Source: Spirogloea muscicola (Eukaryota). Taken from it: 47,857 nucleotides of DNA. The notes below the pieces were generated by a model, which ran no database searches, was not told where the DNA came from, and was given only the letters and a program-made list of their open reading frames with translations. Where the stretch lies: positions 1,134,336 through 1,182,192 of the forward strand of contig WELB01000007.1 of the NCBI GenBank assembly GCA_009602725.1. Reading direction: 5' to 3'. How positions within the stretch are numbered: the stretch's first letter is position 1; every line of letters begins with the position of its first letter. Both the position numbers and the translations under genes were made by a program. Positions 4,341 to 47,857 of the stretch are shown here, one piece after another.

Positions 4341-5184
4341 GAAGAAAGTGCTCTCCTAGCGGAGGTAGAGGCTGGGAAAGGCCAGCCCAAAAAGGATAGA
4401 CAAGGTCCGAAGAGCCGAGAGGCGCCTAAAGCCACACAACTAGACACGAGACAACTGCAGAAGGAAGCCTAGTAACCACGGGTGAGCAGCAGCAAGTCGG
4501 AGAAACTCGCAGCTGGGGAAGAGGCACCCCGCCGAGAGCCAGATGGAGCAGCCATGGCGCGGTCTGCTCGCAAGTGAGAGAGAGAAGGGCTCGCCCATTG
4601 AGGATAGGGGCTGGGGAAAGCCAGCGCAGGAAAGAATGAGCGAAGTGCGAGAAGGGGCCAGGGGAAGCACTAAGGAAGACGAGCACGAGAAGAAGCTGAG
4701 CAGCTACGAAGCACTTAGTAACCCCTGCTAAGCAGAAAGTGGCACTCCCAATGGAGGCAAGGGCTGTGAAAAGCCAGCCCGGAAAAGAATTGACAAAGGT
4801 TCGAAGGGGCCAAATGATGGAGGGGCCTGAACAGCGCTAAGCAGCTACGAAGGGGCCTGAAGAAGCTATGTCAGAACGGGGGAGGATGGACCAGTCAGTA
4901 GTTACGAGTGAGGAGCCTCAAATCCGACAGACCAGCTGCCCCAGCGCTAAGCAGCCTCAGGTGGACTGCAGAAGTAGAGCGCGCCCATAGAAAAGAAAAA
5001 GCTGCAGAGAGCTGGAGAGAAGAGCGCGCCCTTAGAAAAGAGGGGCTGGCAAAGCCAGCCCAAAAAAGAATGGACAATGTCCAAAGCCAAAGCAAGAGGA
5101 GCCGGAGAAAGGACTACACTACAACATACTGCAGAACACAGAGACGATGCAGAGGAAAGCTCAGTACCCACGAGTGAGCTGGAG
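4341..5184 (-). mobile_element. Cluster 1 of nested 5'-truncated RLE (CRE-like) non-LTR retrotransposon 3' ends
   Basis: Four ORF-terminal segments ending (L)L(T/S)R(G/N)Y* (stops near 4469, 4715, 4895, 5161), each followed by a 3' UTR with the GGGCTGGC..CCAGCCC hairpin. TSDs gctaagcag (4727-4735/4946-4954) and gagctggag (5009-5017/5176-5184). Near-identical copies elsewhere in the window (4736-4940 vs 13235-13440; 5020-5180 vs reverse complement of 46580-46740). Confidence 0.85.
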
Positions 5185-5589
5185 GAGCGAGCTGCCGCTG
5201 CCTCCGGGCCACAGGCGCCAGTCGGGAGCGAGCGGCCGACGTCTCCGGGAGGCCGGCGGCCGCCACGGGCCGGCCGGCCACCCCCGGGCCGGGCGCCGCC
5301 GACAAAACCCTCCGGGCCGCCAGCGTCGGGCGGCAGACCGTCCGGGAGGCCCGGCGGGGAATTCGGGCCCCGGGGTCGAGTCGGAAGTCCCCCGCGCTGG
5401 ACGCGCCGCCGACCCGGCGCCGAGCGCGCGGCCATGGCGGCGGCGGCGGTGGCGGCGGCGGCGGCGGGCACGCAAAAAGCTGGCTCCGATCCAGGTTCTT
5501 GAACCCTAGGGGTCGTGCAGGAAGCCCTTTTCCGGAGGCCTCCGAGAGCCGCCATGGCGGCACCGGCGGCGGCGGGGGCGGCGGTGGCG

Positions 5590-5591
<2 letters not shown>

Positions 5592-5680
<89 letters not shown>
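5592..5680 (+). repeat. 89-nt poly(A) run ending at a single-N contig join
   Basis: Seen directly. It follows a GGC-rich tract and abuts the N at 5681, so it is probably an assembly or read artefact. Confidence 0.8.
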
Positions 5681-5681
5681 N

Positions 5682-9306: not shown

Positions 9307-9459
9307 CGTCGGCCGCCCCGCCNGGCTTTTGGCAGCGATGGACAAGGCAGCAGCAGCAAAGGCGATGGCGCCAGAAGACAGCAGATCATATACTTCTATG
9401 AGGGGCTTCCCTCCTCTTATTGATGACAATTCTCATTGCGGCTTGGCTGAGATACTGAC

Positions 9460-10089: not shown

Positions 10090-12661
10090 CCTCCGCTGGC
10101 AGCGGGCCGACGACGTACGCGAGCAATGCGAGCCTGGACGCCAAGGTCACCATCCTCACGCGCGTGTTCGAGATCGCGACGCAGCAGACCGAGGTCAGCG
10201 CCACTGTGCCCCCCCTGCAGCGCAGCCGCCGAGTGCAGCGGCGCCCTTGCACTGCAGACGATCTTATGATGGCCACGCGCTTACGTGGGACCAGGTGGAG
10301 CACCCACTCTGCTTGGAGTGCACACGAGAGCTCTGCAAGGAGCTCGAGGCTGAGGTCGACGAGGTGGAGCGCGACATTGTCGCGTACTCCGCGCTGCTGG
10401 TGGAGCTCGAGGCTGAGCCATCGCACGGCATGACCCACGCGGACTACTCGCTAGAGAAGCAGAAGGTGAGCCGCCGCCAATGTGCGGCTGCTCGGCAAAG
10501 AAAGCTAGCATCCCAGTTGCCTCGAAGCCGGTGCCCATCTTATGGGGGTCATGTGCTAACATGGCGGTAAGAGGAGCTCGAGCGAGCAGGCCTCCTGTGC
10601 CTCCTCAATACAATGTGTCAAAAAGCCCATCTTTGCTGATCTTTCCGCTTCGGCTAGTCGGGGCTTCCATGTGCTGACGTTGCAACCGTGCATTGGCTGC
10701 GCATTACCACGAAGACAGCACTATGACAGTGCCGTGCAAGCGGCCAGCATTGTGTCTTGTAAGGAACACAAAGAGGTACCGGGGAAGGTGCTGATGAAGC
10801 ACGTTGGTGCCAGTGTGCTGTAACGGATGCAAGGCCAGTCACATACCAGCACTCTTCTGCTGGGCGGGGCAGGCGGAGGAGGAGGAGCAGAAGCTGCTGC
10901 GGCAGCTCCGGGGCGTGGAGGAGCAGCAGGCGGAGGTCCAGGCGCAGCTGGCAGGCCTCAGCGTCAAGTCCCGTGAACTTGACGAGCTTGAGGAGCGGTG
11001 AGATATGAAGCTCCATACTGTGCTCCACAGAAACCTCGCCCTGCTACTCCTGGCAGTCAACTAGTGAGCTATGTGCCTTGCGAGGCGGTTGCTCTGGTCA
11101 CAGCTAAATTTGTTCGTGGTGCACACCGGTCACTGCAGATATTGGCATGAGTTCAACGACTTCAAGCTGCAACTGGCGTCACACCAGGTTTGCTGCAGAC
11201 ATTGCACCCCTGTACGCTACATCCTGACCCCTAGATTTGAAAGTGAGAGTACTGGTAGCCAGTTAGCATCTCACACCCCTGACCCAAACACTTACTGTCT
11301 TCTCTTGCTGCTGGTCACATGTCACCAGTCTTGCAAGGAGGCCAGCGCCAGCTGTGTTGCAGATTTGCTGCTCATGCTCCCCACAGCGCAGCAAGGGTTG
11401 AGAGGGGACGCTCACCTGCTGAGCTTGCAGTCAATGATGTCAATGACGTGCGCAGGAGGAGCGCGATGCAGTGTTTGCCAAAATTGAGGTGGCGTCTGCT
11501 CAGCTGGAGGCCCTGAAGCACGTCAACGTCTTGAATGACGTATTTTATATTTGGTACAAGGACGACTTTGGCACAATCAGCAACCTCCGTCTTGGGAAGC
11601 TGCCTCACATTCCGGTTGATGCCTTGCACCTCCATCAAATGGAATTGGGGCATACTCCTTCTCAGCTCTCTGGCTCGCAAGTGTCTGAAGCAATCTGTCC
11701 GAGCAAGAAGTGCATGCCAGAGTTGCCAGGGCTTCTTACGAGAGCCGTATGCGCGAGTAGGTGGAGTGGGACGAGATCAATGCAGCATGGGGCCAGGCCT
11801 GCCTCCTCCTTTTCACCATGGCTCACCTGTGTCGCGTGACCTTCTCGTAAGTGCCCCCAGATGAAGCAACAGCAAAGAGGAGCTCCTATTGCAATGGGGA
11901 TACTGTCATCCTGATCCGTGGGCAGGATCTGAGTGCGACTTGCGTGATTGGTAATGCATAGGTACCGGATCCTACCTATGGGAAGCTATCCAAGAATAGC
12001 TGACAGCAAAGATACCTACAACCTGTGCGTCTCCTCCCACTCTTCGAACTCAAGTGAAGACCTGAGAGCTGCTTGAATTCTCCTTTAAAAACAGGCAGAC
12101 AACCCCACTGTGGGCACTGGGGAATAGATGCTAGATAAGTCAATCTGCCGAGGCTCCTCACTTTTCTGAGCTGTAGTTGCTGCAGTTGTTGCAAACTCCA
12201 CCTTTGATGACACCGTGCTGCAGTTTTGGGCCTGTCAACATCTTCTGGAGCACCCGGTATGACAAGGCCATGGTGTTCTACCTCGCCTGCCTCAAGGAGT
12301 TTGCTGACTTTGCGCACGCCCGTGACCGCGCTGCTGAGCTGCCTCCTGGCCAATCCTGCTTCCAGCTTCCATACAAGTGAGGCTGTTGCTTCAGGTTCCT
12401 CATGCAGCGCTGGTGTCTCTGTGGGGTTGGCAAGCTTCAGGCAGTCCACTGCACATCTGATCCCCAGAGGCTGGTCACTGATGCAGAATTGAAAATGACG
12501 AGGTCAACGGGTTCACAATTAAGCAGAGCTTCAACCGTGAAGAGCGGTGGACCAAGGCACTCAAGTTCATGCTGTGCGACCTCAAGGCCTGCCTAGAGTG
12601 GCTCTGCACTGCTGGACGTGGCACGCCCTCGCACCCAACCTCAACAGAACCCAAGGCGTAG
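10090..12661 (+). CDS. ATG6: Autophagy protein ATG6/Beclin-1, multi-exon, N-terminus not found
   Basis: [147 protein letters not shown]. Stop at 12659-12661. Start coordinate is approximate. Confidence 0.92.
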
Positions 12662-13100
12662 TGCCTCAGGAGCAAGCGGCAGCCCCCTTCATTGGTGGCC
12701 ATGTACATACAGCAAGCTGTTTGTTGCTTCGTCCGATTGAGCCTCTTGGGGTCTCAAAGAGGTCTTTTTCTTGTCACTTGGCAGCGGTACTGCTTAGCTG
12801 GCAAGTGCTGACTCTGTCTACGCTGGCCTGGTCGCGGAGGGGTTACGGTTGTTCTTCGCAGCAGCAGGCACTAGAGAATGCTAGGCATGTGCCTTGAGCA
12901 GGGCCTTGAATAGGTCGTCAAGAGGGAGCCTGCAGGTGGGATGCGCGCCCCTAAGAGGGCGGCGTGTTCCAGCACAAGCTGCCTTGGAGCCGCCAGCCTT
13001 GCTGGAGCCAATTGTGCCGGCGGCATAGCTGAGCATGGTGGCGGCGACTAGGCGTCAAACCGTGGACTAGATGCTGGAGCGATGCTGCACGCCCCGTGCA

Positions 13101-13861
13101 GGTTGTCTTCCTGGGCTAGTTTTATACAGCCATCGCCTCTTCATGGACAGGATTGCTGTGTAGGGGCAGAGGGCCAGTGGCGACAGTGGCATGGGCGGGA
13201 GAGGGCTCGCTTGAAAGTAAGCCTCTTCCAGTAGAAGTGGCACTCCCAATGGGGGCAAGGGCTGTGAAAAGCCAGCCCGAAAATGAATTGACAAAGTTTC
13301 GAAGGGGCCAAATGATGGAGGGGCCTAAAAAGCGCTAAGCAGCTACGAAGGGGGCCTGAAGATGCTATGTCAGAACGGGGGAGGCTGGACTATTCAGTAG
13401 TGACGAGTGAGGAGCCTCAAATCCGACAAACTAGCTGCCGGAAAACTATCCCCCTGACGAAAGCCGGAGGCCGCAGCGAGAGCACGGCCAGCACGCAGAC
13501 GCAAGGCGTGGGCCATGGACCGCTGAAGGGAGACGGACAATCGCGTACGATATACCTAAGCCCACGAGCCAGCGGAGGGCGATGGCTGTGTTTCCCTAGC
13601 TCAGAAAAAGAGGGAACAGCTTTCGAGGGGCCAGGCAATCACTAACGAAGCTCAGGAGGAATTTTCATGTACTGCAACAATCGAAGTCCAAAGTGGCCAC
13701 GTACTGAGAGGGAATGAAGTGTACTAAGAGATCGAGGGCCTGTGTGGCCAAGTACAAAGGCAAGCACATTGAAATGAAACGGCTGCTGAGCGGCTGTGAA
13801 AGCCAGCCAGATGCAAACAGGTTTTTATGACGGAGCCACAGGCTAGGCAGACAGGGCGCTC
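13101..13861 (-). mobile_element. Cluster 2, part a: stacked 3'-end remnants of RLE retrotransposon families
   Basis: 13235-13650 is the same family as 4736-4945 and encodes ...RLSVSLQRSMAHALRLRAGRALAAASGFRQGDSFPAASLSDLRLLTRHY* (stop 13394). 13780-13860 is the UTR shared with 23580-23670. There is a degenerate plus-strand hairpin end at ~13101-13160. Confidence 0.8.
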
Positions 13862-15283
13862 TTAGTAACCCCGTGTCAGCAGTAGGAAGTCAGATGAGCT
13901 GAGGGGAGAAAGAGCAACCCCGCTGCGCAAGCCAGAGGCTGCTGCAAGGGCGCGACTTGCGCGGCGATGCAAAGCAAACGCTTGGGACCGCTGTAGGGAC
14001 ATGGATAAACGCATGCGATTGCAGGACACAAGACCAAAAGGCACCGAGCCACCGGGAAGGGGTGTACCCTGTTCCCGGCGCTGCTGGTCAGCTTGAGATG
14101 CCAGCAGCGAAAGTAACGAGTACCACCGACCCCCGTAACACCCATGGATGTCCATGGCCAGGGGGTAAAAGGCATCACCCGCCGGGTGGTCCTTGTACTT
14201 GTGCATTTTCTACTGTTCGGCCACCTTCACGGCATAGCCGGTCTCAGAAGTCACAGGGCCCTTCGTCCAGAAGCTGTCGGTTAGGACGACGTCCATGAGA
14301 AGCCGCTTGCCACCTCCCAGGGGTTCATTCTTTTTTGGGCCGGCTTTGCCAGCCCCTCTTCTCTATGGGCGCGCACTTCTCCCAGGGGGACGCCAATTAG
14401 ATCGACACGCCGCGTCCAAGGGACCCCGTTGCGGAGCTGGACGGGCATCACCCCGGTGCTCTCCGCCGCCACTTGATATCCCGCCTCCTTGACGATGCCA
14501 TACTTGGCGTCACGTAGGAAGTGTGGGAGACCGTGCGCTCACTTCCTTTGGCACACCTGAGCATGTGGTCACCCATGAGCACTGCATCATGCTCAATAAG
14601 CCCACCTTCACATTGGGTCACCCCTGCCAAGCACAGGGATGGTAAGCCAAGACGGCGGCGCATACCATCGCAAAACAAAGCATTTTCCATCCGCAAGCCC
14701 GCAGGCAAAGGCAAAGCGCGGAGCCACTCAGACGCTCCCAGAGACGAAACAGATAGGAGTCGAGCCTGGCCTCGAGCATCCCCTTGGAGGAGACTCCGAA
14801 GATGCTCCAGGTTGCTCGTCTGCAGCACAGGAAAACCGCGATTGAGCCTTAACATCAGAAACGTCAGCCCAGGCAGCAAAACTAACAGGCTCATTCACCA
14901 GAGGCGGGTATGCGGCAAAGAGGTCCTGTTGGCATGCTTTGAGAGTCACTTGGAAAGGCAGACTCCCCTGAACCACGTTACTGATGTGAGGCGCCAATAC
15001 ACGACGTTGCTCAAGGAGGAATCGTCCAGATATGGACGAGGCCACCTGAGCCCAGCAGCCAAGGTACGCTGGTCTGCATAAGCGGACCAAGGGGCGACAA
15101 CCAAGCCCACCGTGACGTATGGGCGAGCAAGCGCGGCCAGATTAACTGGTGGCTGGGAGAGGCCAGGGATGGGCAGCGTACATTGCACCAGTGCTGCTGG
15201 AGACTGCTCTAGGAGTGGGTGAGCAATCAGATCAGCAAGGCATTGCTGAAGCTTGACATCAATGGATGCATAGACCTCATCCA
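13862..15283 (-). mobile_element. Decayed CRE-like RLE non-LTR retrotransposon: C-terminal ORF region (post-RT segment, Zn-knuckle, restriction-like endonuclease), cut by the gap
   Basis: After removing two mini-insertions the frame reads QCTLPIRHGGLGCRPLVRLCRPAYLGCWAQVA ... QARLLSVSSLGASEWLRALP...MRRRLGLP...CEGG...DHMLRCAKGSERTVSH ... RRVDLIGVPLGGGKRLLMDVV...AE Q*KMHKY...FYPLAMDIHG...RLSMSLQRSQA...LLLTRGY*. Frameshifts and one in-frame stop are present. Clade assignment is from motif recall. Confidence 0.85.
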
Positions 15284-15638
15284 NNNNNNNNNNNNNNNNN
15301 NNNNNNNNNNNNNNNNNNNNNNNNNNNNNNNNNNNNNNNNNNNNNNNNNNNNNNNNNNNNNNNNNNNNNNNNNNNNNNNNNNNNNNNNNNNNNNNNNNNN
15401 NNNNNNNNNNNNNNNNNNNNNNNNNNNNNNNNNNNNNNNNNNNNNNNNNNNNNNNNNNNNNNNNNNNNNNNNNNNNNNNNNNNNNNNNNNNNNNNNNNNN
15501 NNNNNNNNNNNNNNNNNNNNNNNNNNNNNNNNNNNNNNNNNNNNNNNNNNNNNNNNNNNNNNNNNNNNNNNNNNNNNNNNNNNNNNNNNNNNNNNNNNNN
15601 NNNNNNNNNNNNNGCCGCTGCCGCCTCCAGCCGGCGCC

Positions 15639-18600
15639 ATGCAGTACCGCGGGGAGCCCCCCGAGTACCACTTCCGTCCCGCCGGCCGCGGCGGCGGCGC
15701 CGCCGGGCCCTCGCCGTCTGTGAGCGCGCGCCCCAACCCCCCGTCCTGCTCTTCGCCGCACACCACGGCCGCGCCTCCGGCCGCAGCCGCCGCGAGGACC
15801 GCGGGGGCCTGTACTCCCCTTGGGCCACCGTGGAGGCATACTCCCATGTCTGCGCAGGCAGGGCTGGCCTTTCCCCTCCTTTCTCAGTGCTGACTCGTGG
15901 TTACCGAGCGGGTCAGCTTGGCAGCAGGTGATGTACACCTGTCGATGTCCTTGCCTCTGTACTTGGCCACCCAGGCCCTCCACCGCTCAAGACAACCTCC
16001 ATATCTCAGTGCTGGAGGCAGGCCTGGACGAGTGCGTGCCTCTGCTGCGGGCACTGAGCTTGTCGTGCCGCGGGCCCGTGGGCGTGCAGGAGCTCCCGGC
16101 CTACCGGGAGGGCTTCCCAGGCGGCCAGCGCGGGCCGGGGCCTCGGCCAGGCGACGGGGGCCGCGGCAGGTTCTCCGACCCCGCCGCCCGGCGAGACCGC
16201 GACGGCGCCTACAAGCACGACGGCGGCGGCGCGTCGCCGGCCAAGGGCCTTTACGTGAGCGGCGCAGCTACTTGCCCCTCTGCTCTCGCCCTGGACGCAC
16301 GGCGCACCGCGCCGATTTGCCTACCATCAGACGCTTTCCGCGCATTGTCTCGCCAGCCTCTGTCACTGCTGTGCGCGTGACAAGTGCGGGTGTCCGGCAC
16401 ACTCAATTATGAGCACTGTGGTTGTGGCCTTGCAGGACGTCAGAGGGCCCTACCCAAGTGACAGGAACGGCGGCAGAGGCCAAGCTGACCGTGGGCTTCC
16501 AAGGTCTGACGACTACGACGGCAGGGGAGGCGAACGCAGAGACCGAGGGCCTCCACCTCCTGGCCGCAAGGTGAGTGCCGCAGTGTCCCGTTGTCGTCGG
16601 GCACTGTTGCTGGTCTACCTTTGTGCGCCAATTATGTGTGGGAAGCCGTTAAAAGAGCAGCAAGCTCGTCATATGCAGGCAGCAAGTGATCCGAACGACA
16701 TAGGTGAGCCAACGGAGGTCCTCTGGGTGGGGTTTCCACTGTACCTCCGCGTGGACGAAGCGGCCCTGAGGCAGGAGTTTGCGGTATTTGGCGAGCTGGA
16801 GCGCATACGCGCCTTTCCCGGTCGCACGTATGCATTCGTGCAGTTCAAGCGCCTGCAGGACGCCATCACGGCCCGGGAGGCGCTGGAGGGCAAGCTCTTC
16901 AACGACGCGCGTGTTCATATTAAATACTCAAAGACCGAGGAGGAGAAAATTGCGGAGCGCAAGGACGATGTGGGCCCGGGCTCTGGCAAGAAGCTCTTGC
17001 GGGGCCTCACAGATGCCCATGGCGGGGATCTCTACCACGATGCTGTACCACATGCATGGGGGCCCTCTGGGGCCGGCCTCGCTCACAGCGAGGGTGATAT
17101 CCCCAGCTGGCAAGGAGGCCCTGCGCGGGACGAAGCGCATCTGAGAGAGTTTGCTTATCGGGATCCCAAGCGCGCACGGATGGCGGGGCAAAGCTTTGGT
17201 GACGGGCAAACAGTCCTACCACTGGAGTCACTCGCCGCAGGTGTCGCATACGAGCACGGCCGGTTGCCGGCTGAGTCAACTATTGATGTGGGCCTCAAGC
17301 CCGGCCCTCCAGGCTTTAATCCTGGCCCCGTTCCCGGCGCCCCGGGTCAGCCGCTTCTTCAGGCGCAGTACTCGGACCGGAATGCCGCGTGGTTTGGTTC
17401 CGTGGCCAAAGGTGGCGTGCACGTGTGCAAAGCGCGGTCGTCGTCCCTGGGCAAGCCCCTTGATGCGGCATTGTGAGTTGCTCCGAGCAGCCTACTTGTA
17501 CACGTCTTGTCAGTGGGGAAGTGGCTGCTTACCTGTTGCAGGTGTGTTGCAGGTGCAAGCAACAAGGCGTAGGCTACTTGCGTCTCACTTTGCGCAAGCT
17601 GAGTCACTGTGCAGCTTGGCTGGTTGCTGGTACTATTTCTCAATAATCTTGTCAAGCACTTCATTAGCTGTCCAATCGGCTCTTTCCTGGGTGCAGGCCG
17701 GATGTCATTGACTGCCGAGCACGGACAGACCTCGACATCCTAGCGCAGCATGTGTATCAGGCCGGTGACTTTGGTGTGGTTGCGCTCCTGCCTGAGGAGG
17801 ATCCGGACGTCCCACCATACGAGGAGTTCGTGCAGTATCTTGGAGAGAAGCGGCGCGCCGGCGTAGGAGAGCTCGCCGATGGCTCCACGCTCTTCCTGGT
17901 GCCTCCGTCGGACTTTGCACAAGTTGTCCTCAAGGTCCCCCGCAATGACTGCCTCTTTGGGCTCGCTCTCAAGTACCCCCCAAAGCAGCCGCTGGTAGAC
18001 AGTAGCCATACCGCGGGGCCGCCGGCCCCGCCGCTGCTGCCGCAGTCGATGCAGCACCAGCAGGCGCTGTTGCAGCAACAGCAGCAGGCAGCAACAACTA
18101 GCGCGCAGGCGTTTCAGCCGGCGTCCCATGCGCCACCGTCAGGCCACTATACGCAGCAGGTGCAAGGTTCGCAGCAGCAGTACGCCCCACCCCGTGCACA
18201 GGACGTTGCTGTGTTGCCTGGGCAAGCAAGGCCGGGGCCTGCGCAGGCGCCGCTGGCCAGCCAGGGGGGCCCTCCGACGGGTGCGGCGGCGACTTCGTCC
18301 CAGCTCTCAGCGCTTGCCGGAATTCAGGGTCTCACGCCGGAGCTTCTTGCCACCATCAATGGGCTGCTTGCCAGCAGTGGTCAGCCTGCTCTCCTGTCGG
18401 CCGTCCCCCCAGGCATTGCAGCCCCGCCGGGCCCGTCACCGCCGCCGCCGTCGACTATGTCGGGCGGTCCTCGGCCTCCTCCACCAGCAATCAGAGGCCC
18501 TCCGCCACCTGTAGGACCTTCTTCCAGCACCGCTGCGGCTGTGGTGGGCCCTCTTGGGGGTCCTTTGCCGGGCGTCTCGCTGCCATCCTATCGGCCGGGC

Positions 18601-19068
18601 ATGTTTGCGTCCTCTGGCACTGCGCTGCCGCCGCCGCCCAACTGGCAGATGCAGCAGCCACTGCAGCACCTGGAGGCGGCGACAGCGTTGCAGGCTCACC
18701 AGAGCGGCAGCTCAGGGGCAGCACTGCAGCCGGCGGGAGGGGCAGGGCCGTCACTGTATGCGGCCCAGTTTGCAGGCCCGCCCCGGTTGCAGCAGCAGCA
18801 GCAGCAGCAGCAGCAGGCGCAGCAGCATCAGCAGGGGCCTCTTCCGCCTGCCACCGCAGCTCCCGCCAGCGCGCTGCAAGGCTTCCAGGCAGGCTCGGCG
18901 CCAGCACCTCTGCACTCGGCGGCCTTGTACCCGCCGCCGCCACTGCCGCTGGCGCCGCAGCAGCAGCCGCTACCAAGGCCAGGCATAGGGATGGCCGCAG
19001 CACCAGCGCCGGTGCAGCTGCCAGCCGACCAGCTCGCCCAGCTGACGGCGTTGCTTACGCAGAGGTCT

Positions 19069-19148
<80 letters not shown>

Positions 19149-19830
19149 GCCGCAGCAGCAGCAGCAGCAGCAGCAACTGCAGCAGCAGCAGCAGCCGCAG
19201 CCGCCGGTTGTGCCCCAGCCGAACCCACTGCAGCAGCTGCAGCAGCAGCAGCAACTGCAGCAGCAGCAGCTGTATCAGGGGGCTCCTGCTACGGTCCCCC
19301 CGCAGCAGCCAGCACAGGCAATGATGATGCAGCAACCCCAGTACAGGGGACCACCCCAGCAGTACCAGCAATACCAGCAGTACCAGCAGCATGCGATGCA
19401 GCAGCATCCGCTACAGCAGCATACGGTGCAGCATACGCAGCCGCCGCCACAGCAGCAGCTAGCCTCGGGCACGAGCAGTGCCTGGGATCAGCAACAGCCG
19501 CACCACCAGATGCCGCGACCGACACAGCCGCAGCAGCAGCAGCAGCAGCCACATCCACAGCAGCAGCAGCATAACGCCGCCACTTTGCAGGCGGCGCAGC
19601 ATCAGCAGCAGAATCAGCAGCAGCAACAGCAGCAGCAGCAGCAGCAGCAGCACCAGCAACAGCAGCTCGTACAAGCAATGCCGCCGTCGCAGCAGATGTT
19701 GCCTGAATCGTCAGGGGCAGAAGGGGATGATAAGTCAGAAGCAGAAAAGCAGAAGCGTTTCCAAGCCACATTGCAACTTGCTGCCGCACTCCTCCAGCAG
19801 ATGCAGCAGCAAAAACCGGCTGGGACATGA
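15639..19830 (+). CDS. FPA: FPA-like Spen-family RNA-binding protein (RRM + SPOC + Q/P-rich tail), multi-exon
   Basis: RRM PTEVLWVGFP...FAVFGELERIRAFPGRTYAFVQF...LEGKLFNDARVHIKYS. SPOC domain WFGSVAKGGVHVCKAR...|PDVIDCRARTDL...YEEFVQYLGEKRRAGVGELADGSTLFLVPPSDFAQVVLKV. FPA-type C-terminal helix KRFQATLQLAAALLQQMQQQ. The true start may lie in the upstream gap. Confidence 0.85.
19069..19146 (+). repeat. (CAG)26 coding trinucleotide repeat within a larger Q-rich region (~18790-19810)
   Basis: Uninterrupted CAG run seen directly, in frame in ORF 17752..19830. Confidence 0.9.
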
Positions 19831-21619: not shown

Positions 21620-23870
21620 TTAGAGAGATGGGCTCGCTTATAGAGGATAGGGGCTGGGAAAGCCAGCCCAGTTAAGAATGAACAAAAACCAAAAGTCCTT
21701 AGGATGGCATAAGCCAACCTTTCATATGACGAGCGGCGGACTTAGCCGCAAGCCTTAAGCAACGCCCCGGCTCAGACTCAAATGGGTGATGACTTCTTGA
21801 TGGTGAGGAGTATCATCGCCATCAGGCTCAGGTACACTGTAGTGAGCAACCCGGCGAACGAACTCCCTGGCGTGTAGTCATATGCTATGAATGCGCCATG
21901 AGCCTGTTGTCTGTTGGACGAGAGCATCAATCTGGAAGGTGTAGCAGTGGAGACGAGGAAGGAAGTGGTCTTTCTAAAGAGGTGGCAAGTTGGTGTAAGA
22001 AAATGTGTCAAGTGAGCGAGAAATTGAGGGAGATGGAGGAGATCTTCAAGTAAAGAGGGAAGGCGCGCAGTGTGCATAGGATGAAAGGAGGCCAACCCGA
22101 GTTTAGGTAACAAGACGACAGCAAAGCTGGAGGGGGACCTCAGTACCCACGAGTGAGCACAGACAAAGCCGACAGGCTAACTTGGGGAGCCGGAGCACCG
22201 CCACAGAAGCCAGTGGCCTGGCTAAGACACGCCCAGCACGCTGGTAGATTGCCAATGCTTGAAAGCTGCAGACAGCGAAAGCCACCTTTTGTGACATGCA
22301 ACTATTGCGTGCGGAATCCTAGACTGCACAAAGCTGCCCCCCCAGCTGCGGCGACGCGAATCAACCAGCTGGGCCAGATGCTGGAGGAGAGAGGACAAGG
22401 TTAACGGCGCCATGTGCATTCTTCCCATAAGGCAAGTACAAGGTTCTGAAAGGGCCCAAGTAAACAGCTCTTTCAACGCAAGGCAATGGCTGTGAGAGGC
22501 CAGCCCACAGAAAGTGAGCTCCTCCAAAGGGGGCGGGGCTGTGAAAAGCCAGCCCAGGAAGAACTGACAAGGTCCAATGGGCCGGGTGGCGCCAAAACCG
22601 CCCAGCTATGCAAGAGACTACAGCGGATGGGAGCTTGGTAACGAGTCAGCGTCGTAAATCGGAGTAACTTGCAGCTGGAAAGAGAGAATGAGGCACCTGG
22701 ATGAGACCCAGAATTGGCAGCCACAGCGGGGTTGCCCACAAGTGTACCGTGTGAGCTTGGGAACGTTGGAGAAAGTTTGGCTCTCTTGGAAGGAGACAGG
22801 TAGCCGCATGCGGAACACCTGGGCAGGCGACCTGGCGGCGTTGAAGCCGGGCAGCTCACCTTGCGGTCCCTGCCGACGATCGATGGCCGGCCGTGTAAGT
22901 CGCTGCAGGAGGTGCACTGAGCTCTTCCACAAAGAATTGACAAGGTCGAAGGGGCAGAAAAGCGCTGAAACACCGAGTAAACAAGTACCATGTAGGAGAA
23001 GCACTTCCAAAAGCCAGTCCAGAAAAAATGGGCAAGGTCCCCAGTGCCGAAAGGGGCTGAAAGCACACTGCTGTGCGAGAGACTACAGCGAACGGGAGCT
23101 TCGTGACACACACAGCCGTCCCCCTCTACTGGAAGAGTCTCTCTTCATAGTAAGCCCAGAGCCCAAAGGAATGAACAAGGTCTGAGACCTGAGAGGGCCG
23201 AGAGGCGCAAACAAACACGAATCTATTCTCCGTGATTTTTGTGCGAATGACGCTCAACCTCTGGTCAGCAGAGTGCAGTGATCGGAGTAAGGAGAAAATT
23301 TCTGCTACTGCGGAGTTACTAGGCTCCCATTCGCTGTAGTCTCTTGCATAGCTGTGTGGTTTTGCCGCCTCTTGGCCTTCTCTTGGCCCAGGGGGAAGAA
23401 GAGAGAAGCGCGGCCAGATTGACTGGTGGCTGGGAGAGGCCAGCCCAAAGAAATGGACAAGGTCTGAAGGAGCCGGATGGCGCAAAAAGCAAGGTACTAA
23501 GAGGGAAAAATGCTTCCAACAGAAGCTTCTCTTTTTCCCAGAGGGCGACTGCTGTGCGAGGCCAGCCCAGGAAGGAATGCGGCTGCTGATACTGAAAGAG
23601 CGGCTGTGAAAACCAGCCAGATGCATACAGGTGGTCTTGACGGAGCCACAGGCTAGGCAGACAGGGCGCCCTAAGATGTGCTTGCCTTTGTACTTGGCCA
23701 TTTGGCCTTCGTTTGTTTCAAATACACGATATTTCTCATAGTACCCGCGGGTCAGCACCAGGAAGGCAGCGCTTGCTCGAAGTCAGATGAGCTGAGGGGA
23801 GAAGGCGCGGGCGGTGCGCATGAAATTGAAAGGGAGGCCAGTTCTAGCCTTACAAATGTCCTGTTCACTG
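21620..23870 (-). mobile_element. Cluster 3 of nested RLE retrotransposon 3'-end fragments (several families, mostly minus strand)
   Basis: Hairpin ends at ~21650, 22490, 22540, 23430, 23550 and 23600. ORF-terminal segments at 22140-22410 (same family as 47268-47520), 22637-22900 and 23740-23800. TSDs ccaca (22505-22509/22927-22931) and gaag (23762-23765/23779-23782). Confidence 0.82.
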
Positions 23871-24456
23871 GGTAATGAGCTGGCTAAGGGGGACACTGAT
23901 ATATCCCCGAAGGGGAGGAAACAGAATAACAAAGGGGCCAGATAAAGCGCTGAGCCATACAGGGACTCCACGTGGCCACGAGGCACTCTGTACCAGAGGG
24001 CGACGCGGACTACGACACTCTCGCAGCTCGGCCTCGCCGGCGGGCCGGGCAGCGCGGCGGGCCTCGCGGCGGCGATCGCGGGCATGGCGCCGCCGCCNNN
24101 NNNNNNNNNNNNNNNNNNNNNNNNNNNNNNNNNNNNNNNNNNNNNNNNNNNNNNNNNNNNNNNNNNNNNNNNNNNNNNNNNNNNNNNNNNNNNNNNNNNN
24201 NNNNNNNNNNNNNNNNNNNNNNNNNNNNNNNNNNNNNNNNNNNNNNNNNNNNNNNNNNNNNNNNNNNNNNNNNNNNNNNNNNNNNNNNNNNNNNNNNNNN
24301 NNNNNNNNNNNNNNNNNNNNNNNNNNNNNNNNNNNNNNNNNNNNNNNNNNNNNNNNNNNNNNNNNNNNNNNNNNNNNNNNNNNNNNNNNNNNNNNNNNNN
24401 NNNNNNNNNNNNNNNNNNNNNNNNNNNNNNNNNNNNNNNNNNNNNNNNNNNNNNNN

Positions 24457-36568: not shown

Positions 36569-36602
<34 letters not shown>

Positions 36603-36674: not shown

Positions 36675-38120
36675 GGAATACTTGACTAACTGAGCCAGTT
36701 AGCCAACTAGCTATGAATTAGATTTCGGATAGATTCCGGTTATCTGAGCCGGTGACGGGACCACGGTGACGGGCGGTCCGGGGCCGCACCTGACGGTGGG
36801 CAGTTTGAGTCCTCTGCGGGTCAGCTCCGGGGCTGGGGGGGGCCTACGGGCTGGGGCCGGGCGCCGCCCCGGAGAGGACATCCGGTCGAAATCCGGGCGG
36901 GCCAATGAGCGCGCCGGGCACGATCCGAGGACCCGGGCAGCGCGGATCATCGGCGCTGGCCGGTTGCGTGGGATCCGACGGCGCGCAGGGAGCCACGTGG
37001 CGGGGGGCTTGTCTCCGTTCCCTCCCCCCAGTGGCCAGGTGACCAGACGGCGGCGGCGGAGGCGGCGGCGGCGGCGTCTGCGGCAGCGTCCTGCCAGGCA
37101 CCTCAGCGGCCTCCCCGTCAGCCGTCGCGGCCTGGCTGCGCACGGCCGGGCCGAGCGAGGCGGCAGCAATAGCTGGGCCGCTTCTCTTCAGACACGGCGG
37201 TGTGTCGCTACACCCGACGGCTCCCGTTGTTGGCTCCTCTGCCGCTCGGCAACGCCACCTTCGCCTTGTCCCGGCTACCGATAGCTGCTGCTCTTGCCTT
37301 GTGGATGCTTGACGGGACAGCTACGAGATATTGCAAGCGCAAACATCTGGCAATCACTGGCTCGTCAATCCAGTTGCATTCCCTCTGCGTGTTGCTCGCC
37401 AGAACACAGTGTATGGCCTTGCTCTTATGTAAATTGAACGCCAAGGTGAAGGAGCTAGTCGTTTTTCAATGTCTACTCTCTCGCGACGCAAGCACCCGTG
37501 GTCTTGGGGTCACGTGGACTTGCTGAAGTAGTTTGCCAGTCCAGCATTCAGACAACTGCTGATCTCTGCGAAGCTTGACTGAAGGGGGTATAGACTTAGG
37601 TCTCGTAATCACTTTCACAAGATTTCACAAGTGCGACGGCCTCTGGCCTGAGTTGGCACACGCTCTGTAACTTGTGTGGTACGCAGTGCCAAGAACGGGA
37701 TTGCTTAGCACGCCTGCATAGAAGAGGTTTAGTGCATCAATGTAATCTATTGCTCATTGTGGAAATAACAACAACCTTACGGCATCGGTACAGACACTTT
37801 CTAGAAATTCTGAAGCTGCAAGCTGCAGCCAAGGCTGACGATTGCTGGACTGTCTCTGCAGCATGCGCATGTAAGCTGGTTATTGTTCTTGAGGAGTCGT
37901 GCACAATAAGAGATTATGCAACAAGCATCATGGCATGGCTACCAGTACAATAACCACCTGTGACCTTCAATGCACAAACCAACCATGTCCTCCATGACAC
38001 CCCTCTGTGCCACGCCGATGTTGCTCAATAAATTGCAGACACAAACTCGCTTGCAGTTATACCTTGCTGTGCAGAATACTTTTCAATTTGGACTAGGGAA
38101 TGGGACAGTTGTTACTAAGT

Positions 38121-40661
38121 TCAGATTCCAAGGAGCAGAGCAGCAATTGCCATACTCGCGGCTAATGTGACTGTGGTGGTCCTAAGGGTTGCCGATGATG
38201 GAGTGGAGACAGGGGTGTCAGAGTAATCGAAGCTCCCAGGGGTGGACAGCGCGTCCAGCCTATTGGTCAAGGCTTCTAGGGGACCAAGGTACTCCACGAT
38301 CGTCGTGCCGGTGGGCACGGGCTCCGTTCCAACTGCGCCAGGGCTGAAGATGTTGCCACTGCCGGAGAAGAGCAGGCCCGACGCCTGCGCGCGCACATTG
38401 GCGATGTCCAGAACGGTGAGCAGCTGGCTGCGGTCCTGCTCGTTGAAGTCCGAGCGTATCAGCAGGGCCTTGCCTGGCACCGCTCCAAATGAACAGTCCC
38501 GGTAGGAGGTCAATGGCGCGCACCCGCCCTGCAACATTCAAGGAGTGATGACACATCAGAGGTCAAGCAGGTCAGACGGCAACTCGATATTGAAACACTT
38601 GTGAGCACCCGCAGTATGCGATGGGCTCCGCCTGCCAGGTCAAGTAGCACTTGGACTCCCCACTTTAAGAAGGCAGGCAACAGGGCTGAAGGCTCTCAGC
38701 TTCATCCGCCACTACTCTGAATATGGCTGTAGGTACTTACGGTGGGGCAGAGGAGCCGGTAGTTGTCGTGGCTCTGGAGATTAGACCAGGAGGTAATGGC
38801 GTTATTGCCGCCTGCAGCGTAGTTGAGTGGGACGTTGTGCTCAGTGAAGGCCACATCGTTGTCGCCCTCCACCAGGCACTTGAAGGCGCCCACCGGCCCA
38901 AAGAACTGCAGCATCCACATCCTCGGACTGCTAAGCTTATTTGGCTGTTGATGCTGCCGTTGCAGCTTGCCTTGCTTGCATCGTGGGTTGCAGCTGCGAA
39001 CAAGACGCTAAAGGCTGGCGTCCTGTTCTCTTTCCATCAGCAGTAGCTCAAGGCCAACTTTCTCCTTTTACGTCAATGGCTGGAATGGCATAACCGAGAG
39101 AGGGCAAAGAAGTGCGACTTCTCAAGCAGGGTTCCGTGTGGGAGCAAGGGATGCGTACATCGTCATTGACATCGCAATTCTCAACACTGCTGCAGGCGGA
39201 GCAGATCTTGGCGTCGCCCTCACTAGCAGCACAGGACTTGTCAAAGAAGCCCGCCACGGATTGGATGTCGATGGGCTGCCTTGATGTCCTGAGCATCCCA
39301 ACACGCACCTCGTCAGTGACTTAGGAAAAGGTCAGAAGTACTAAGGAAGTTGGCTACAATCAGGTGGATCAGATCCAGACGTGGTGTCGCAGCGCTCCAC
39401 CTGTTGACGAGGCTGATGATGGGCGACCCCCCACTTGTCATGTAGCCGATGGGTGCGTCCCAACCAGTCGTTTGTCGGTAGCCCGTGTGGCACGACGACC
39501 TGCCTTGTAGGTCCGCCAGTGTCGTTGCAATGCTGCCAAAGGGGGCAGTCAACGGGCACCATGTCAGCAGCTGCAGCGCCCTTGCCTCGGTGACCAATTG
39601 CTTGCGTGGCCAGCCTTGATCAGTCCGCCCACTTGCATGTATCTTACGCTCGCAGCGTGCATGACGCAGAATAGGTGGAGGTTGCAGCCTGCCGGCCTTG
39701 TACCTGCAGAAGGACGCATGCACAACTGCCACGCTGTAGTAGATGCCACCAATCTCGCCTGCGAAGCGCTCGCGGATGTACGGAACCAGGTCGTACTTCT
39801 GGGCATAGACCAGGGAGCCAGCATTGAACATGCCAAGGTCTGCGTCGCCAGCGGCGACCATGTCGATGCAGCCTTCGTCCCCATTGCCGCGTACGCTGCA
39901 GGATGGACCTTGCAAAATCATCAGGCGGCATTCTTGCTAGTACATAAAGGTGTTGGGTTGCAAAGTGCACAGCACATTGACCTTGCAGGACTGCCAAGGC
40001 ACGGTAGTAAAGCGACTGCGTTACGGGTGCCCTGCAGCCGATCCAGGTACCTAACGACACGGTGAGCGGTAATGACTACACTGTCCCTTTCAAGGAAGAA
40101 GGGCAAGTGGAGGGAGGCGAGCATGCCGAGGCCTTCAAGCCTGGCGAAGGGGTTGGGACAAGAGGAGGATAGAGGAGCCCCACGGGAGGGAAGGAAGGAG
40201 GAGGTGTGAAGGAGGTGGCGACCGACCAGCTCCAATCGTGGTGCTCGTTGAGATAAGGCGCGTACTGCTCTAAGGTCTGCAGCACCTCCACCATCTGCGA
40301 GCAGAAGGCCAGCTCACTTGCCTGCCCGACGCACCACCGGAGGGCTGCACGATTGCACGAGTATGTGTCGGCCGTCAGCACTAAACGGCTCGAAGAGGCT
40401 GCAGTGATTGGTCTGTAATCGAGGCCGATCCAGAAGATGGCTAGCGGGAGATGCCGGGTAACATCCTAGCAACGTGACGTTCAGCCGCTTCTGCACTTGG
40501 CACCCGAGGTTGGCAGGAGGGCGGTCCGTTCACAGGAATGGAGGCAGCGCCGTCTTACGCGTCTTCGTGGCATTGAGAATGGGGTGATTCTGGGCTGACG
40601 CGCCGCCTGCGGCCGCCAGGACCGTGAGGAGCATAGTGAACGCCGCCGCCGCGAGACCCAT
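38121..40661 (-). CDS. Single-lobe transferrin-like protein with signal peptide and probable GPI/TM C-terminus, multi-exon
   Basis: Signal MGLAAAAFTMLLTVLAAAGGASA. Transferrin motifs LRWCV, CIDMVAAGDADL, YYSVAVV, LQGRSSCHTGYRQTTGWDAPIG, FFDKSCA...ICSAC, GAFKCLVEGDNDVAFTEH, YRLLCP, DCSFGAVP. Ser/Thr-rich then hydrophobic end TLAASMAIAALLLGI*. Confidence 0.88.
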
Positions 40662-44325: not shown

Positions 44326-44569
44326 GATTTGTGCCTTCCGCATTTCATTATTTCGACATACCGGTCGTTGACAACGTCAGCATGCAGCTTTATCTGCCTA
44401 AACCCAGTAGATCTTGTCCGTGTCCTTAGCCGCGTGACGAGAGCTTGTCTTTGAGGTGTATAATTGTCTAACTGAATCGCAAGTCATAGTGACCCTCCAT
44501 TATGCTTCTTCAGCGCCCTGCTGGCCGAGCTTTTTCACCACTCACTGCTGTGCAATTCTGTGAGCCAAC

Positions 44570-45790
44570 TTCGGTCTCGTTGACCAAAATAGAAAGAGCT
44601 CTTCCAATGTAAGGCAGTTGCTGTGGTTTAGGAGTCCAAAGGAGTGCACAAGGTCTGGAAGGGATACAGCCCTTGCCCCCTTTGGGAGAGCCACTTTCTG
44701 TGGACCTTGTATGTAGTTTCTGGGCTGGCTTATCACAAAGAAGACGTTCCGGAATGGTGGGCTCATGTGCACCCCGCTCGATGGTCAGGAAGAAAGAATG
44801 GCTGTCCCAAAGGACACGAGGGCTGTCATAAGAAGAAAGCGCGGCCCAATTGACTGGTGGCTGTGAGAGGCCAGCCCTTCGCACTCCGACTCCTTCAGAC
44901 CTTGTCCTTCCAGCCCCTATCCTCAATGGGCGAGGCCTTCTCTCTCAAGGGCAAAGGGGGCAAGGGTTGTGAACAGCCAGCCCGAAAACCAAATTGACGA
45001 AGTCCGAAAGGGGCCAAAAAAGCGCTGTCTCAGAGCTGGGGTATGATGGATGACTTGGCAACCACGAGGAAAGAGTATGGAAGATGTACAAAGTTTGAAG
45101 GGCCCAGAAAAGCGTTAAAGACCTCTGTATGCCCCTTCGGACCTTGTCATTCTGCTTATCACAGCCCTCGCCCCCTTAGAAAGAGCTCACTCTTCGCATG
45201 TGTCAGCCTGTTTGCAGCGAGCTCAGGCTCATGCTTTGCACCATAAAGCTGGTCAAGCCTTAGCTTGTGGCACAAAAGCTTGTCAACTGCCGTCCGGTTT
45301 CCGGGCATCAGTCAACGCCCTCGATGTGCGCTCTGGCGGTCTCGGTCCAATGCTCCCTTGCCTACGCCGTCCACATGCGAGCAGGCCGTGCTATGGCTGC
45401 CGCCTCTGGGTCTCGGCGGAGTGCCTCTTTCCCTGCAGCGAGCTACTCCGACCTGAAATTGCTCACTCGCGGGTACTGAGCTTCCCTCTGCATCGTCCTG
45501 TATTTTGTAGTGTTTTGAGGTATAGTCCTTCGGCACCTCTTTCTTTGGCTTTGAACATTGTCCATTCTTTTTGGGCTGGCTTTGCCAGCCCTTCTTCTCC
45601 GTGGGCGAGCACTTTCTTCTTTCTGCGCCATCCGGCTCCTTCAGACCTTGTCCGTTACTCTGAGGTAAGCGTGGCCACATTGACTGGTGGCTCGGAGAAG
45701 CCAGCCCAAAACACTACAAAAAGAACAAAGGACGAGAAGGGGCCAGGGGAAGCACAAAGAACAACAAGCACAAAAAGAAACGAAGCAGCT
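44570..45790. mobile_element. Cluster 4, part a: mixed-orientation stack of RLE retrotransposon 3' ends
   Basis: Hairpin or terminal motifs at ~44665, 44720, 44860, 44910, 44970, 45160, 45575 and 45690. Plus-strand ORF ends SACLQRAQAHALHHKAGQALAC (~45200-45270) and SLAYAVHMRAGRAMAAASGSRRSASFPAASYSDLKLLTRGY* (stop 45477-45479). Confidence 0.8.
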
Positions 45791-45799
45791 ACGAAGCAC

Positions 45800-46890
45800 T
45801 CAGTAACGCCTGCTAAGCAGCCTCAGGTCAGAGAGACTGGGTCGGAAGCGGGTCCCCTGGCCAGAGCTAGAGGCAGCACAGAGAGAGCCCTTCAACCGCC
45901 GCCTCGTTCACGACATCGATATTTCCTAACGATCCCCCTTCGCCGCCATCCCCCTGCGCGCACGGCGGCGGCAGCAGCGGCAGCGGCGGCGGCGGAGGCG
46001 GCGACGGGCCCGCCGCCAAGCGCGTCCGCGCCCAGCTGGATGGGCATTGTTGAGGTGTTTTCCACAGCCTCCTTGAAGCCCGCCTCCCCTGCATGCCATC
46101 TCGCAGGAGATCGTGGGAACCGGTCCGCTCGCCCCCGTGCGCGCAACGGAGCATATGCGCAGCCAGCTCCGCAGGGTCGGCGTGACGGACACCACACTCG
46201 CACTGTGTGACGCCCACGAGGCAGGGAGGGAGGAGGCCAAAGAGCCGGTGGACCGCCGTCCTGAAGACCTCATCGGGCATGGTGAGCGCCGCGTAGAGTG
46301 GGAGCGCTGATAACCACGCCGCCGCCCTGGGGGAGGAGGCTGAGAGAAGCCGGGCGCGCCCGCGAAGGTCAGACGGAGGGAGAAGCTCCACGACCTGGTC
46401 AGAGGCCGCTTTTCCAACCAGCGCCGTGAAGCGTGCCTGGGGGTACGCAGGTCAGGGGTGCGGGCGAGGTGGACGAAAGCCCTCGCCGTCCACATGCGAG
46501 CAGGCCGTGCTATGGCTGCCGCCTCTGGGTCTCGGCGGAGTGCCTCTTTCCCTGCAGCGAGCTACTCAGACCTGATGTTGCTCACTCGTGGGTACTGAGC
46601 TTCCCTTCGCATCGTTTCTGTGTTCTGCAGTGTTTTGTAGTGTAGTCCTTTTCCTGCTCCTCTTTCTTTGGCTTTGGACATTGTCCATTCTTTTTTGGCT
46701 GGCTTTGCCAGCCCCTCTTCTCTATGGGCGCGCACTTCTCTGACGAAAGGGACGGCCTGCTCCGACACGTTGAAGCAAGCGCGGCCAGATTAACTGGTGG
46801 CTGGTGGTGGTGGCTCCGACACGTTGGGGTGGACCGCCAGGAGCCCGTCGCGGGCAGAGCGGAGGGCAAACCTGCAAGGGCAGCTGGGCA
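45800..46890 (-). mobile_element. Decayed CRE-like RLE retrotransposon fragment (Zn-knuckle region) carrying two nested insertions
   Basis: RARLLSASSPRAAAWLSALP...FRTAVHRLFGLLPPCLVGVTQCECG...AHMLRCAHGGERTGSHDLLRD aligns by eye with the peptide at 14500-14800. Insertions with TSDs at 46472-46749 and 46759-46826. Confidence 0.85.
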
Positions 46891-47100
46891 GAAAGCAAGG
46901 TACTAAGTGCTGAGACGGCAGCAAGGGGACTCTCAGTAAACGTCTAGTCAGTAGATACAAATGGGAATAGGTAGCAGGCGGATAGACGCTAAAGAAACGG
47001 TGTTAAAGGAACAGCTCTTCCAATTCACAAGTGAAAAGCCAGCCCGAGAAGAGTTGACAAGGCCGAAAGAGCAAGCGCGGCCAGATTAACTGGTGGCTGG

Positions 47101-47857
47101 GAGAGAGAGAGAGAAAGAAGAGTGCGCGCCCATAGGGAAAGGCGCGCGGGGCGCATGAAATGAAAAGGGAGGCCAATTCAAGCCAATACACAGTTCAAGC
47201 AGAGGCGAGTGCAAAGTAAACAAGGCTACATAATATAGAGACCTAAACTAGGGTGCCTAAGGTGACATTAGTACCCACGGGAGAGCACGAACAAATCGGA
47301 CAAGCTGACTTGGGGAGCTGGAGCGCCGCCACGAAAGCCGGAGGCCCGACTTAGAGCGCGCCCTGCACGTTGATGAAGAGCGGCTTGCGAGCGCAGCAAA
47401 CAAATCGAGAGCCGCATTCTATAGTATGCAATTAAGGCCTGTGGAATGCTGGAGTGGCCCAAGCTGCCCCCCCGACTTTTACGACGCGCATCAACCAGCC
47501 GGGCCAGATGCTGGATCAGAGAGGACCATTTCAAGCCGTAGCCGCCATAGATATCCATGGCACACGGGCAAAGATGGTCCCCTCGGGGATGGTCCTGGTA
47601 GTGCCGCTCCTTCTTGCGCTCCGCGCTGGACGTGGCCCAGCCAGACACGGTTGACGTGGGTGTGCCAGCCTTGTATGCGTCGATCAGTACCACGTCCAGG
47701 AGCAGACGAGGCCCACCGCCCCGGGGGGTGGCGACCACGTCCAGACGCCGCACGTATGGCTTGCCGCGCCTGAAGGAGATTGGCATGATGCCGGACACCT
47801 CCATCGCCGGATGATACCCCGCCTCTCGCAAAATTCCAAACATTGTATCCCTGAGTA
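47101..47857 (-). mobile_element. CRE-like RLE retrotransposon 3' part (endonuclease domain, stop, 3' UTR, (TC)n tail), continues beyond window
   Basis: ORF 47268..47843 ILREAGY...E...RRLDVVATP...LLLDVV...AERKKERHY...PCAMDIYG...RMRLSICLLRSQA...LSRGY* has the PD-(D/E)xK RLE layout. The UTR ends ...CGCGCGCCTTTC(TC)n near 47101. Confidence 0.88.

Follow-up and report, generated by a model that had tools for sequence, protein, structure and literature searches.

A conserved stem-loop at the 3' ends of non-site-specific RLE retrotransposons in the alga Spirogloea muscicola

Results

Retrotransposon ends cluster between the genes of the window

We analyzed a 47,857-nt stretch of Spirogloea muscicola DNA (contig WELB01000007.1, positions 1,134,336 to 1,182,192; hereafter the window), to which alone all counts below refer, and found in it many copies of a short 3' stem-loop carried by restriction-like endonuclease (RLE) retrotransposons that lack long terminal repeats (non-LTR). 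The window is eukaryotic in character, with many introns and densely packed genes, and its open reading frame (ORF) translations resemble those of WD40, ATG6, FPA-like, ABC1-kinase-like and HAC1-like genes. Four intergenic clusters and two small outliers, about 8.2 of 47.9 kb, hold the element pieces, which we sorted into types A to I (labels of this analysis's own). Judged by the coding remnants that precede them, the motif-bearing sequences represent 3' ends of RLE non-LTR retrotransposons, of which about eight related types can be told apart. The 3' stem-loop of this abundant, non-site-specific and apparently CRE-like lineage is real, and it is probably undescribed.

A strict hairpin pattern gave 16 matches at 13 loci (three matches being the same hairpin on the opposite strand) compared to a mean of 0.65 and a maximum of 3 in 200 block shuffles, and a hidden Markov model (HMM) trained on 20 copies found 31 partial or whole copies compared to 0 in each of 10 shuffles; an earlier reading of the letters alone (the sequence-only reading) had placed its copies correctly. 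Thirty of the 31 HMM copies lie within or border the element clusters, and one weak match (13096) lies just outside. This isolated copy (13096-13139, plus strand), beyond the second cluster, is a GGCTAG/ACAGCC variant resembling the second motif of type I described below. Public DNA contigs placed on 4250-5250 numbered 10,502-18,540 records per run, with high depth at terminal motifs and stop-codon regions; element 3' ends are clearly highly repeated genome-wide, contig placement being a measure that yields no copy number.

The ends belong to one lineage of RLE elements

An ORF C-terminus of the form ..L[TSL]RxY* precedes every copy that is stop-anchored or sufficiently long, and longer fragments encode the thumb region of reverse transcriptase (RT), a CxC-x12-H-x3-C zinc knuckle and the RLE domain. 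Window ORFs 46113-46451 and 47271-47855 carry the knuckle and RxD..D..KxxxY, that is, a C-terminal CCHC motif together with a PD-(D/E)xK-type RLE. RT is represented in the window by its thumb region, the core being cut off by truncation, a gap and the window end. A homologue search of 1.84 billion representatives returned 591 relatives at E up to 0.001, and RVT_1 lies upstream in 11 of the 17 relatives scanned. The protein P0014 is a complete single ORF of 1096 amino acids (aa) with the order RT-zinc knuckle-RLE (RVT_1 at E 7e-19); two window ORFs match it at E 6e-18 and 1e-14, in agreement with the RLE families named in the sequence-only reading, and among solved structures it comes closest to R2 proteins (E 9e-7, over part of the RT only). 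The nearest named relatives of the window elements were Spirogloea muscicola gene models (61-77% identity), with Closterium proteins further off; Atlas clusters were unnamed, plus one with RVT_1 in 15% of members. Pfam gave no significant match in seven window fragments or seven close gene models, and no homologue appeared among proteins of 1592-4545 aa, in a search limited to that size range and therefore uninformative. Between types, ORF C-termini are 32-80% identical (22-52 residues compared), and the types are therefore real families of one lineage.

By motif resemblance the lineage appears CRE-like, none of the 30 relatives looked up being a named CRE reference protein. Compared to the REL consensus C-X1-3-C-X7-8-H-X3-4-C-X9-10-RH[DN]..E..[RK]PD..[DE], as given in the accessible part of its source (PMC12857005), the lineage retains motif order and the catalytic acidic residues, has a C-to-H spacer of 12-13 and a slightly short C-to-HD/N spacer, and carries other residues at the R of RHD and the P of RPD; the spacing in the closest relatives is 12/8/19/17/14.

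The translated motif occurs in 4 of 173 proteins fetched, and the Spirogloea-type gene models P0001, P0002, P0021 and P0056 contain translated hairpin together with RLE fragments; element clusters have therefore been annotated as genes. Another protein, P0011, repeats an RLE segment about nine times in tandem.

A conserved hairpin lies at a constant distance from the element end

In the 20-copy alignment the core of the motif reads GGCTG-G-C-(pyrimidines)-C-[A/C/none]-CAGCC, which yields a 5-bp stem, a bulge of one base and a loop of 5 nt, mostly pyrimidines, that is closed by a G-C pair. The loop-closing G-C pair is kept in 20 of 20 copies, with 90.7% pairing across the stem; pairing in a small GAC/GTC hairpin reaches only 68.6%. 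Among six type representatives, identity was 0.83 in the hairpin, 0.61 in the terminal module and 0.61 in the preceding 30 nt, and 0.55 (0.44-0.76) in the 5' part of the untranslated region (UTR) compared to 0.49 when shuffled (shuffled values overall 0.45-0.52). The stem thus exceeds the flanking UTR in conservation, a comparison that the sequence-only reading had left to be made. Its picture of a kept stem with variable loop and spacer stands as to sequence, loop and spacer being type-specific, and falls short as to pairing, the core being free of compensatory changes.

From CAGCC to the terminal CTT the distance is 22-25 nt in seven types despite differing spacer sequence; because this distance is constant while the spacer sequence changes, it suggests a ruler. 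The spacer had been given as 12-15 nt and measured about 11 nt (CAGCC to the T of the downstream TGG/TAG), and the supposed terminal motif CTT(C/G)TC proved to be partly tail or target duplication. In stop-anchored UTRs long enough to judge, an unbiased sample, the hairpin is present in 9 of 11 and absent from two of type E, so that the single architecture ascribed to all families describes most of these UTRs and not type E. The description of the 3' UTRs as otherwise unalignable was too strong, since 4332-4576 can be aligned to 46491-46749 (71%, 264 nt) and to 22509-22744 (70%, 243 nt), with about 105 nt of ORF end included in these stretches. Rfam 15, a comparison the earlier reading had also proposed, returned 16 matches at E up to 5, none overlapping a motif copy, and we found no description of the motif or of Zygnematophyceae RLE elements in the open literature (Repbase, Dfam and subscription journals being outside the search).

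Inserts carry target site duplications and end without poly(A)

Target site duplications (TSDs) of 6-14 bp flank 6 of the 21 ends tested. A host RLE ORF fragment (46113-46830, minus strand; pre-knuckle region and zinc knuckle) is split by two inserts, a type A insert of 262 nt (46480-46741, plus strand; 8-bp TSD GACGAAAG) and a type B insert of 40 nt (46773-46812, minus strand; 14-bp TSD CAACGTGTCGGAGC); at the 5' junction of the latter, an additional CAC repeat resembles RT slippage or non-templated addition. Within a type I element, a type A insert of 55 nt lies in the RLE coding region (14324-14378, plus strand; 10-bp TSD CTCCCAGGGG) and a type B insert of 44 nt in the thumb region (15125-15168, minus strand; 6-bp TSD GCCCAT). 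The remaining two are a type C insert of 210 nt inside a type D ORF end (4736-4945, minus strand; 9-bp TSD CTGCTTAGC at 4727-4735 and 4946-4954) and a type A insert of 158 nt that adjoins an older A-like end (5018-5175, minus strand; 9-bp TSD CTCCAGCTC).

For five of the six TSDs the null p was 0.004-0.035, with about 0.7 such matches expected by chance across the 21 tests; the 6-bp GCCCAT (p=0.23) is weak alone and draws its support from the flanking host reading frame (..CTLPI and PIRHGGLG..). The TSD sequences are mutually unrelated (four of six start with C, three of those with CT), which indicates that there is no fixed target, and across the six we saw no site-specific insertion of the kind known from R2, SLACS, MoTeR and Utopia. 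The hallmarks of target-primed reverse transcription, namely 5' truncation, a fixed 3' end and variable TSDs, were all found. Five of the six TSD-bearing inserts lie within coding remnants of other RLE elements (binomial p 0.0007-0.011 against a background of 17-30%), in a post hoc test that treats targeting and tolerance alike.

The sequence-only reading had noted that no copy has a poly(A) tail, and this was borne out: at 19 3'-complete ends, the 6 nt following the terminal CTT comprised 93 pyrimidines in 114 positions, arranged as short C/T runs, and the longest A run within 30 nt was 3. At the type C terminus (4737), 161-189 contig records per DNA run diverge (agreement 0.38-0.40, with a C/T-rich consensus start), evidence of the true end that rules out poly(A) in this family. 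The poly(A) signals AATAAA and TGTAA occurred 0 times in 11 UTRs.

Successive insertion is favored for the array at 4.3-5.2 kb because two of its units bear their own TSDs, and template jumping is conceivable at the 15 ends that lack a TSD. For 46113-46741 we rejected a twin-priming inversion, the plus-strand piece bearing its own 8-bp TSD, and a 9-nt 'TSD' at 47120 was dropped as a self-match.

Other element pieces and features

At the start of the 4.3-5.2 kb array, a 5'-truncated type F 3' end (4341-4576, minus strand) has 35 codons of RLE ORF end, a stop at 4471, a 129-nt UTR and its hairpin at 4369-4388. It is followed by a type D 3' end (4580-4735, minus strand) with ORF end ..LLSRGY* and a hairpin near 4608-4627, the upstream part of which resumes at 4946-4965 past the type C insert. 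Among the best 40 of 158 differences between these copies (4582-4735 and 4341-4576) and contigs of run X1, the window letter is in the minority in 29; 21 of the same 40 (4341-4735) show G or C in the window and A or T in the contig majority, and 2 the opposite. Eleven T-to-C changes (element sense) cluster in 4615-4698 of the type D copy. Type A copies show ordinary decay (C>T 7, G>A 4, T>C 3, A>G 2), and the G/C excess may therefore reflect one hypermutated copy or an old subfamily; a genome-wide AT-to-GC drift, hinted at by the contig differences, was rejected as absent among type A copies.

A type C 3' end (13232-13552, minus strand; stop 13396), which retains the last 52 ORF codons, precedes the type I element, which extends over at least 1.7 kb (13556-15283, minus strand) and is truncated by an assembly gap at 15284. 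Its coding part (RT thumb, CCHC zinc knuckle and RLE) is disrupted by a frameshift, a stop and two inserts, and its 309-nt UTR, beyond the stop at 13864, contains two motif copies, the first with its hairpin at 13790-13809 and the second, at 13566-13637, degenerate. Farther along, on the minus strand throughout, lie a type D 3' end for which no TSD was found (21623-21700), a decayed type E ORF end and UTR in which the canonical hairpin is absent (22040-22440), a type G 3' end and then, head-to-tail, a type H end (22458-22744, with H at 22458-22515 and the G hairpin near 22536-22555), a stretch at 23400-23700 with a type B end (23400-23489) and two more hairpin copies (23534-23578 and 23594-23649, one of them type I), and a type E end with a 4-bp GGCT..GGCC hairpin variant (23790-23875).

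Short 3' fragments of types C, B, D and H in mixed orientation (44591-45195) are followed by a type A 3' end (45333-45618, plus strand) with 48 codons of ORF end and a stop at 45477. Next to it, a type DB end (45661-45870, minus strand) joins a D-like ORF end and 5' UTR portion (76% identity to 4717) to a B-like terminal module and, from this arrangement, is possibly a chimera or a recombinant at the hairpin. The last element, of type E (47132-47857, minus strand), leaves the window with an open 195-codon RLE domain, a stop at 47270, a 139-nt UTR and the 4-bp hairpin variant. Directly past its terminus lie short A-, B- and H-type ends, head-to-tail (47006-47131, minus strand), three tiny ends without clear TSDs at which template jumping is possible.

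Outside the elements, an 89-nt A run (5592-5680) is preceded by very GC-rich sequence and ends at a single N; lying on the 5' side of the cluster and on the wrong strand for a tail, it is probably an assembly artefact. A long ORF (17668-19830), presumably from an FPA-like gene, has extensive CAG/poly-Q tracts following a SPOC-like region and gave chance Rfam matches, and exons on the minus strand at 38100-40500 resemble those of a transferrin-like protein. In a metagenome scan by protein alignment 0 of 239 pattern matches were confirmed; the only metagenome match to the motif pattern (L001) was dismissed as chance, lying in an A/T-rich, bacterial-looking coding region without an RLE match.

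Discussion

The 3' stem-loop is probably an RNA signal by which the protein of an element would bind its own transcript and position reverse transcription. We regard this role as the most likely because the elements are of the RLE class and the motif lies at the true 3' end, is conserved beyond its flank and is not followed by poly(A); the observations concern junction features, and precedent supplies binding, positioning and specificity. The RT recognition or priming module put forward in the sequence-only reading thus survives as the most likely function, in a design already known from 'stringent' long interspersed nuclear elements (LINEs). In the mechanism we propose, the element protein would bind the stem of its own RNA, the RLE would nick DNA with little sequence specificity, and the fixed distance from the stem would set the start of the cDNA within the C/T tail, with 0-3 nt of microhomology at the nicked target. 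Through the variable loop and spacer, each family would remain largely restricted to its own RNA, cDNA synthesis would usually stop early, and copies would accumulate in older elements, either through preference or through tolerance of such sites in a gene-dense genome.

Several points weigh against this reading. The window elements are all partial, RNA-protein recognition is read from their sequence, and the copies were picked by the motif, so that its conservation is inflated. In type E the canonical stem is absent; two of three copies have a 4-bp GGCU/GGCC version with a longer spacer, and U-G replaces U-A in two of three. In type I, family sequence continues for at least 75 nt beyond the first hairpin, up to the degenerate second copy; the motif, placed at the element end in the sequence-only reading, is in this type followed by further family sequence. 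Covariation tests on the 20 window copies found no compensatory change in the five core pairs and a covariation score of 0.061 compared to 0.045 in shuffled alignments, with 70 of 500 shuffles equally high; covariation, which the sequence-only reading had looked to, was not shown because the stem is invariant. RNAalifold returned no consensus structure on the 20-copy alignment. The stem was predicted at a probability of 0.78-1.00 in seven of ten folded copies and disfavored in three (0-0.38; one had lost an arm), and folding z-scores of canonical-motif copies were mostly weak (+0.2 to -3.2). Folding of types A and D predicted an outer helix, TGTC(C/A)A/TGG (P at least 0.93), and type F showed one apparent compensatory change; cognate pairs scored no better than swapped pairs (p=0.37; 0.10-0.59 in other windows or sets), and we do not claim this helix, the permutation test having failed.

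Invariance of the stem sequence across types whose ORF ends are only 32-80% identical could also mean that the module is a lineage-wide docking site, open to the protein of any family and leading to mutual mobilization in trans and swapping of terminal modules. The DB end, with its B-like terminus after a D-like ORF end and UTR, the F/G-like UTR upstream of the B copy at 23446, and contig joints that connect ends of different types (which shared homology alone could yield) agree with this idea. However, loop and spacer are type-specific, we saw no non-autonomous partner with a foreign 5' part, all long copies leading into an RLE ORF end, and zebrafish L2 elements of the same layout show strict cognate recognition, swapped stem-loops being inactive according to the accessible part of the report (PMC4176376). 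By the L2 precedent, a shared stem with a variable loop therefore favors family specificity over sharing, and we consider the docking site unlikely. The DB end, the one hint of exchange, is explained by recombination at the shared hairpin without trans-mobilization, and the cross-mobilization suggested earlier is left with no direct support. Equally doubtful, in our view, is the broader proposal that a very abundant, non-site-specific CRE-like lineage of Zygnematophyceae uses the invariant bulged stem as both docking site and ruler, with RT sharing in trans, module exchange and mutual targeting; if it were true, mutual targeting and sharing would make up a self-nesting retroposition network with a cis-signal of about 55-90 nt.

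The lack of poly(A) and of AATAAA or TGTAA in 11 UTRs, the constant distance to the end and the two motif copies in type I would also suit a hairpin and pyrimidine tract that form or protect the 3' end of a non-polyadenylated RNA (by termination, cleavage or stability) instead of binding RT, a role that seems to us rather improbable given that no Rfam ribozyme or processing element matched and that the tested LINE precedents, so far as their accessible descriptions go, indicate protein binding. Common descent alone would leave the motif as the best-preserved remnant of a drifting, pyrimidine-rich UTR, a G/C-rich inverted repeat with no special function. UTRs of some types still align, covariation is absent and copies were selected by motif, all of which such a remnant would accommodate, whereas hairpin identity of 0.83 compared to 0.55 over the same tree, the 22-25 nt kept to the terminus while the spacer sequence changes, and the motif in 9 of 11 independently anchored UTRs make it improbable to a similar degree. 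Many copies are just 40-90 nt long and a terminal hairpin is typical of Helitrons, which raises the question of whether the copies, instead of being LINE 3' ends, could be a short interspersed nuclear element (SINE) family, ends of Helitrons or Penelope repeats with ribozymes. This is most improbable, since longer copies extend into RLE ORF ends, TSDs measure 6-14 bp, no copy has an Rfam match, and the termini consist of CTT with a C/T run rather than CTRR.

The stem-loop resembles the tail of a stringent LINE, and its membership in that functional class is putative. If it is the recognition signal that we favor, the mechanism of stringent 3' tails would also hold for an RLE lineage that branches early, in the algae that are sister to land plants, and a short, well-bounded RNA would be at hand for tests with an RLE protein, a class relevant to RNA-templated DNA insertion; the short inserts are no proof that a short RNA suffices, since the template probably had its full length. 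Annotation of Spirogloea, in which fragments are very frequent and are translated within predicted gene models, would gain from a curated consensus. No new class of mobile element is revealed, and what the sequence-only reading had presented as an undescribed retroposition system falls under the known stringent design, for which the monocot L1 hairpin is a precedent (PMC3472496, available portion).

Elements of the L2 clade (ZfL2-1, ZfL2-2 and eel UnaL2) likewise have a small stem-loop near the 3' end, whose stem can be exchanged and whose loop is particular to the family, and after it short repeats instead of poly(A); in the accessible account, zebrafish L2 proteins tolerate a foreign stem but reject a foreign loop, and a complete exchange of stem-loops abolishes retrotransposition (PMC4176376). 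They differ from the window elements in using an apurinic/apyrimidinic endonuclease (APE) rather than an RLE and are, as far as seen, unrelated in sequence, and the function of the stem-loop is established for L2 whereas here it is putative. In a monocot L1 lineage, the LINE1-1_ZM group, the last ~45 nt form a hairpin with a divergence of 0.144 compared to 0.570 elsewhere, and thus a 3' hairpin is similarly conserved across diverged families of one plant lineage; that group belongs to the L1 clade and has compensatory stem changes and partner SINEs, whereas the stem here is invariant and no SINE partner sharing the 3' tail was found in the window (PMC3472496). Absence of poly(A) is ordinary for algal LINEs, since poly(A) is listed in the same account for 2 of 15 L1, 0 of 8 RandI and 0 of 6 RTEX green-algal families.

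With the CRE group (CRE1/2, SLACS, MoTeR, FoTeR and Cnl1), relatives of the window elements share a single ORF, RT, a C-terminal CCHC knuckle and RLE, and the lineage shares the motif order CxC..H..C, HD/N, E, RxD, D and many truncated copies (PMC12857005); head-to-tail arrays recall MoTeR (PMC7367193). In contrast to the CRE group, the window elements are not bound to a fixed target (telomere repeats or spliced-leader genes, for example), have a C-to-H spacer of 12 rather than 6-8, SH[DN] for RH[DN] and RLD/RVD for RPD/RAD, and carry a shared 3' hairpin that we did not see in the CRE descriptions compared, which are partial. R2 also combines RLE and RT and requires its 3' UTR for retrotransposition (PMC4176376); it is specific for 28S rDNA, whereas the TSDs of the window are unrelated to one another, and the protein similarity covers part of the RT at E about 1e-6. 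Zepp of Coccomyxa/Chlorella is, like these elements, a green-algal LINE in clusters of nested copies (PMC3446292), and differs as an L1-clade element with poly(A) (PMC3472496) and, in the passages available, one cluster per chromosome, compared to four small intergenic clusters in 48 kb here. Very short 5'-truncated insertions are reported for Chlamys elements (median 128 bp; PMC9977147, accessible part), and target specificity is described as weakened in some RLE families (PMC4640811, accessible part).

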